From sequence record PZ386980.1: 64,000 nucleotides of DNA; one strand, written 5' to 3'. How positions within the stretch are numbered: position 1 is the stretch's first letter; each line of letters begins with the position of its first letter. This stretch comes from a phage. Positions 41,822 to 42,323 of this stretch are shown in pieces. The notes beneath the pieces are model-generated. The model saw only the letters and a program-made list of their open reading frames with translations. It did no database searches and was not told the origin of the DNA. A program made the position numbers and the translations under genes.

Positions 41822-41880
41822 GGTAATAGTATCACTACCTCATCATCGTGTAAACAACTTTGTGAAATTATTTTAAATCG
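41822..41880 (-). promoter_or_regulatory. T4-type early promoter for ipI
   Basis: UP element, -35 GTTTAC, -10 TACTAT, ~30 nt upstream of ipI start. Confidence 0.5.
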
Positions 41881-42323
41881 TCTGTCCAATCGAGCTTAAG
41901 AGGTTCTTTGTATTCACGATCTAATACGACCGGAATTTGTACATCACCGCTAAATGATAAGGGCCCAACATTATAAGACAATGTTATATGCGGTGTGTAA
42001 TCGTCAAAATCATGTGTAGCACCTAGCGCCCGCGCATACATGTGTCGACAGCGCAGATATTCAGAATCTAGTACAAGTACAAGAGTAGATCCATCTTGTG
42101 TTTTCCATACTTCTAAATGTCCAGAAGAAGCTACTTCAAAACTTCCGCTTGATGGAACATACGGAACATTTACTCTTGAATAACATATAGTCGAATGAAT
42201 TTTTTCTCTAGGAACTGGATTAGGAACACGTAAAGAGCGCTGAAGTTCTTCCAGCGCATCAAGTGTTAATTCTGAAAACTTAGCTGCTACATAAAGACCC
42301 GTTGAAAAGTCTTTAAATTCCAT
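41868..42323 (-). CDS. 57B: gp57B, 2H-phosphoesterase-like (Acb1-type anti-CBASS candidate)
   Basis: 151 aa; two H-x-T motifs (HSTI, HITL); directly upstream of 57A as in T4. Confidence 0.7.

Follow-up and report, generated by a model that had tools for sequence, protein, structure and literature searches.

The closest described relative of the gene reported here is 57B of phage T4. Its product was found by activity-guided fractionation, degrades 3'3'-cGAMP, and was named Acb1 (Hobbs et al., 2022; PMC9117128). The T4 enzyme carries an HxT/HxT tetrad, H44/T46/H113/T115, of which H44 is the catalytic residue that was mutated (Hobbs et al., 2022; PMC9117128). Its stacking residues are Y12, W74, F107, and W147, E141 contacts adenine N6, and residues 145–152 make up a lid (PMC9117128). 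The enzyme cuts on the 3' side of adenosine in two steps that need no metal, with a cyclic phosphate as intermediate (PMC9117128). In vitro, Acb1 stops the activation of the CBASS effectors Cap5, Cap4, and CapV, and its activity in T4 infection is seen from about 15 min. T4 Δacb1 shows a >300-fold defect on CBASS E. coli and grows normally without CBASS. A transposon screen found T4 57B to be dispensable on K-12 and depleted (conditionally essential) on a CBASS host, and transcript atlases class the gene as middle/late. T4 Acb1 also degrades the decoy nucleotides of Panoptes, and the guard is thereby triggered (Doherty et al., bioRxiv 2025). This triggering is a cost that follows from the broad specificity of T4 Acb1, and Tevenvirinae that carry Acb1 escape Panoptes by inactivating acb1.

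LigT-like cellular 2H phosphoesterases have two H-x-T/S motifs and a pseudo-symmetric fold, and carry out metal-independent transesterification via a 2',3'-cyclic phosphate. Enzymes of the LigT type act on RNA ends, whereas the substrate of Acb1 is a cyclic oligonucleotide immune signal. Apyc1, the poxins, and the sponge Acb2 resemble Acb1 in being of viral origin and in removing cyclic-nucleotide immune messengers, but their folds and chemistry are unrelated to it: Apyc1 belongs to the Zn-dependent MBL enzymes, and Acb2 sequesters its ligand without cleavage. The viral enzyme 2H PDE-9 (9Q2G/9Q2Y; Doherty et al., 2025) has the 2H catalytic histidines and degrades 3'3'-cGAMP too. It is poor at cleaving 2'3'-c-di-AMP and for that reason, unlike T4 Acb1, leaves Panoptes untriggered.

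We analysed a 64,000-nt stretch of phage DNA (sequence record PZ386980.1; hereafter the window). Positions 30000–54000 of the window correspond to positions 62145–86145 of phage RB51 (FJ839693/NC_012635) with 100% identity over 24 kb, and RB68 is essentially identical to the same part. Gene 57B lies within this segment, and its features and the adjoining chaperone gene are as follows.

41868..42323, minus strand: gene 57B/acb1 CDS, an ORF with ATG start and TAA stop, 151 aa, 100% identical to RB51 gene 57B

42186..42197, minus strand: first catalytic motif HSTI, residues 43–46 (reverse complement CAT TCG ACT ATA; T4 numbering H44/T46)

41979..41990, minus strand: second catalytic motif HITL, residues 112–115 (reverse complement CAT ATA ACA TTG; T4 numbering H113/T115)

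41871..41894, minus strand: C-terminal lid, residues 144–151 (T4 145–152), including W146 (T4 W147), as the lid is defined in Hobbs et al. (2022)

41883–41885, minus strand: codon of the sole substitution relative to T4, T147 (ACA) for A148 (GCA), in the lid and adjoining the stacking Trp

42321..42325, minus strand: TAATG, in which the 57A stop overlaps the 57B start (window ATAATGG, T4 ATGATGG)

42323..42565, minus strand: gene 57A, tail-fibre assembly chaperone (Pfam PF17594 GP57, E 2.6e-50; RB51 annotation), directly upstream of 57B

The initial annotation had pointed to HSTI and HITL motifs in a 2H arrangement in the 57B product; coordinates and motifs were both confirmed, and the ORF translation contains exactly two H-x-T. 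The two motifs are 69 residues apart, in keeping with the spacing of about 70 residues in the 2H superfamily. By themselves the motifs are weak evidence for function. At least two H-x-T appeared in 2.9% of 200,000 residue shuffles of the 57B protein, and two are present in 1 of the 47 window ORFs of 100–200 aa. It is homology that raises the motif observation above chance. Along its full profile (1–144 of 144), Pfam PF23474, "Anti-CBASS protein Acb1," aligns with the 57B product at 202.8 bits and an E-value of 2.5e-60, the cut-off of the family being 27 bits. No other Pfam family was matched at E ≤ 0.01, and no LigT or 2',5'-RNA-ligase model was among the matches. NCBIfam returned no family for 57B. 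Two short plus-strand ORFs within 57B (47 and 30 aa) had no support and were dismissed.

Among solved structures the best match to 57B is Acb1 of Erwinia phage FBB1 (7T26, apo; 7T27, complex with 3'3'-cGAMP), with 68% identity over residues 8–148 and an E-value of 4.1e-62. HTT of the 7T26 chain stands opposite the first motif and PHITLSYN opposite the second. The FBB1 enzyme shares with 57B the HxT/HxT motifs, the aromatic pocket residues, and the C-terminal lid; it differs in the loop that follows the fourth strand region, which is longer by one residue (TQSGNR vs. TQDGS in 57B), in a lid Ser where 57B has Thr, and in the host genus. We infer the 2H fold of 57B from this 68% identity to the 1.1 Å structure 7T26. 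A single-sequence AlphaFold2 model was unusable (mean pLDDT 36.9, pTM 0.28). A weaker PDB match was obtained with 9Q2G (E 0.004), in which H50 and H123 align with H43 and H112 of 57B. The relation of 2H PDE-9 to 57B in sequence is thus a weak one, and its lid is N-terminal.

The comparison with T4 is far closer. The window protein is identical to T4 57B (NP_049750.1, from NC_000866) at 150 of 151 residues, and the statement in the initial annotation that T4 57B is the founding Acb1 is borne out by Hobbs et al. (2022). Aligned with the catalytic residues of T4 Acb1, H43/T45/H112/T114 match H44/T46/H113/T115 column for column. The base-contacting residues Y11, W73, F106, and W146 and the adenine-reading E140 are all identical to those of T4, and the lid (LDWTDDLK) is complete, its single change, T for A, being conservative. 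The likeness extends to the position after 57A and to a downstream regulatory repeat. 57B is almost certainly the RB51 orthologue of T4 Acb1, a small metal-independent 2H phosphoesterase, as judged from family, structure, and residue alignments. At the codon level we counted 10 synonymous differences and 1 non-synonymous difference from T4, a ratio that indicates purifying selection on 57B.

The numbering of the window protein is that of T4 minus one because it equals the T4 protein without its first Met. In T4, 57A ends with TGA and two Met codons open 57B, whereas the window has a TAA stop and a single ATG. Translation in the window must begin at the second ATG, since the first Met codon of T4 is ATA here (42321–42326, minus strand). 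The comparison suggests that the second ATG may be the true 57B start in T4 too. The old T4 record X03016 likewise annotates a 151-aa 57B product.

57B belongs to the 1 > 57A > 57B transcript. On the model of the T4 and FBB1 enzymes, its product would bind cyclic di- and trinucleotides with at least one adenosine in a U-shaped pocket. The C-terminal lid would shut over the bound ligand, with the bases stacked by Y11, W73, F106, and W146 and adenine N6 read by E140. H43/T45/H112/T114 would provide acid-base catalysis: the 2'-OH of adenosine would attack the 3'-5' phosphodiester, giving a 2',3'-cyclic phosphate intermediate and then a linear product with a 3'-phosphate. The CBASS messenger (3'3'-cGAMP, cUA, cAAA, and others) would in this way be removed before the effector kills the cell, so that the phage cycle could be completed. 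We infer that RB51 57B has the chemistry of T4 Acb1 and its anti-CBASS phenotype. No biochemistry or genetics of RB51 57B itself was found in the searchable literature, and no entry for RB51, RB68, or YP_002854100 was found in the supplements of Hobbs et al. (2022) that were searched. If the assignment is right, RB51 should resist CBASS signals that contain adenosine. It should also be sensitive to Panoptes like other Acb1-carrying Tevenvirinae, the guard firing on degradation of the decoy cyclic nucleotide.

Other readings of 57B were weighed against this assignment. The product could be an RNA-end enzyme, either a LigT-like 2'-5' RNA ligase or an RNA 2',3'-cyclic phosphodiesterase, with RNA, or whatever the neighbouring tRNA genes produce, as substrate. 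RefSeq and PHROG 755 do name it "RNA ligase," some records call it "RNA 2',3'-cyclic phosphodiesterase," such enzymes belong to the established membership of the 2H superfamily, and a cluster of nine tRNA genes lies ~1.4 kb downstream. "RNA ligase" is, however, an automated, similarity-based label. At the same E-value limit Acb1 was the sole Pfam match, with nothing of the LigT type beside it. The T4 protein, one residue different, directly cleaves cyclic oligonucleotides and is needed for CBASS evasion, and T4 without 57B grows normally when CBASS is absent. We therefore regard an RNA-end function as very improbable. As for chance H-x-T motifs in an unrelated small ORF, the shuffle frequency given above is the point in its favour, but this origin of the motifs is ruled out by the homology to Acb1 (E around 1e-60), the invariance of the motifs, and the alignment with the crystallographic residues.

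A separate question is whether the Acb1 of the RB51 lineage is functionally altered, the lid change from Ala to Thr weakening its activity or shifting its substrate range. The lid is needed for catalysis, and T4 Acb1 Δ145–152 was inactive in the Panoptes activator assay (Doherty et al., 2025). The substitution falls within this element (residue 147, T4 148), and in a collection of 50,697 phage records, five entries from RB51, RB68, and Ac3 are the only ones with the exact window protein. Against this, the corresponding residue of FBB1 Acb1, an enzyme that hydrolysed cGAMP in its crystal, is Ser, and in a related 2H PDE a lid swap left the preference for substrates unchanged (Doherty et al., 2025). 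Moreover, all other residues are identical to T4, and the 10:1 ratio argues for continued purifying selection. An altered enzyme is accordingly hardly to be expected. Orthology with unchanged Acb1 function is the reading we retain, and the Thr147 change is probably neutral, because Ser occupies the position in the active FBB1 enzyme and the lid had no effect on substrate preference in the related one. It is likewise highly unlikely that the Thr147 variant subtly retunes Acb1, e.g., toward less activity on 2'3'-c-di-AMP (the Panoptes decoy) with anti-CBASS activity kept. If true, such retuning would be a natural step toward escape from a guard system that senses Acb1.

The gene, fold, chemistry, and CBASS role of 57B are already known: the 2022 publication described them in a protein with a single residue different. 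Public names lag behind: in addition to "RNA ligase" in RefSeq and PHROG 755, most GenBank records give "hypothetical protein," a few give a phosphodiesterase, and none of those listed gives Acb1. By the standard of Pfam PF23474 and the 2022 paper, these names are outdated. The practical value of the present result is one of annotation: 57B should be renamed anti-CBASS protein Acb1 in RB51, RB68, and many other records.

To describe the conservation of 57B we aligned nine homologues: the window protein, T4, the 7T26 chain, RB49, Acinetobacter phage Octan, Vibrio phage KVP40, Aeromonas phage 60AhydR15PP, Klebsiella phage 150040, and Vibrio phage vB_VmeM-32. Identity to the window protein ranged from 99% to 28%. 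Only 13 columns are invariant; H43, T45, H112, and T114 account for four of them, and Y11 is another. By tblastn, matches to 57B were found in 1,472 of the 50,697 phage records, and the commonest organism names among these were Escherichia, Klebsiella, Shigella, Acinetobacter, Vibrio, Enterobacter, and Aeromonas phages. The gene order 1 > 57A > 57B is kept across Straboviridae genera. The 57A stop and the 57B start also abut in Octan, KVP40, and an Aeromonas T4-like phage, and overlap by 4 bases in RB49. Since the stop/start abutment recurs in other T4-like phages, 57B is probably translationally coupled to 57A.

In the direction of transcription, the minus-strand order in the window is gene 3, gene 1, 57A, 57B, Ip5, trna.4, trna.3, trna.2, and the tRNA cluster; gene 1 encodes dNMP kinase (Pfam DNMK, E 4e-106). 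The initial annotation had given 57B a place upstream of 57A and just downstream of an ip gene. Both placements hold in plus-strand coordinates, but they are reversed in transcription: all of these genes are read from the minus strand, in the order 57A, 57B, ip gene. A scan of positions 41200–43600 for sigma-70-type promoters found 12, compared with 8.7 ± 3.1 in shuffles, and thus no enrichment. Because the scan is at background, we assign no promoter to 57B itself. One terminator-like site was found in the same interval, which is within expectation. Rfam at the gathering threshold gave nothing but tRNAs over positions 36000–46000.

The ip gene and its flanking repeats are as follows.

41537..41794, minus strand: internal head protein gene Ip5, 85 aa (RB51 annotation; PHROG 3499 internal head protein, E 3.7e-50), downstream of 57B

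41815..41883, minus strand: direct repeat, left copy, 69 nt, starting inside the last five 57B codons

41484..41552, minus strand: direct repeat, right copy, 69 nt, after Ip5

The likeness of Ip5 to T4 IPI is confined to the N-terminal capsid-targeting leader of ~26 residues (12/26 identities, E 0.002), and no similarity to IPI was found across the mature protein. NCBIfam had no family for Ip5. In T4, Ip1, Ip2, and Ip3 are inhibitors of GmrSD type IV restriction enzymes, each acting on a distinct one (PMC12373910), and a counter-defence role for Ip5 is by analogy with these three a reasonable guess. No reported target of Ip5 was found in the literature consulted. The proposal that counter-defence functions are grouped at this locus consequently stands on its Acb1 side, which is established; the other side is conjectural, the ip gene being Ip5 and not T4 IPI. 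A counter-defence cluster is plausible on these terms, half established (Acb1) and half conjecture (Ip5).

The two 69-nt copies that bracket Ip5 are 83% identical, and each holds a short inverted repeat in addition to the promoter-like TTTACA-17-TACTAT. Because the repeat begins within the final 57B codons, DLK-stop is the shared ending of 57B and Ip5. The promoter-like element fits the PST/T4 PeSL consensus TTTACW-N17-TAYWAT (PMC4122927). T4 ipI, which is unrelated to Ip5, is bracketed by the same repeats. By sequence, the repeats flanking Ip5 are the known cassette-shuffling architecture of T4-type phages, through which different ip genes would come to adjoin a conserved acb1.

Some further features of the region were recorded. 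Three small conserved ORFs, trna.4 (61 aa), trna.3 (126 aa from ATG), and trna.2 (95 aa), lie between Ip5 and the tRNAs at 40608–41466 (minus strand). They match PHROGs 1692, 1411, and 2023 and gave no Pfam match. The trna.4 product has many hydrophobic residues (MFVGFICGLLTTAENVFSLVVAFLIGLIAIV) and is by its appearance a membrane protein. The tRNA cluster itself (nine genes, 39104–40510, minus strand) is interrupted at 39616–40266 by an ORF for a SegB-like homing endonuclease (PHROG 314, E 1.5e-55). The cluster differs from that of T4 in the presence of tRNA-Tyr and tRNA-Asn and the absence of tRNA-Pro. The gene at 39363–39437 was called tRNA-Met(CAT) by ARAGORN vs. tRNA-Ile with a CAU anticodon in the RB51 record. 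An ORF of 157 aa at 37873–38346 (minus strand) belongs to PHROG 2280, of unknown function; it has no NCBIfam family, and according to the RB51 record a 34-bp imperfect direct repeat flanks it. Its N-terminus, MKSYTQFLNEA, resembles the T-even capsid-targeting leader (Ip5, MKTYKEFATE; T4 IPI, MKTFKEFTST), and the ORF may encode a further injected internal protein.
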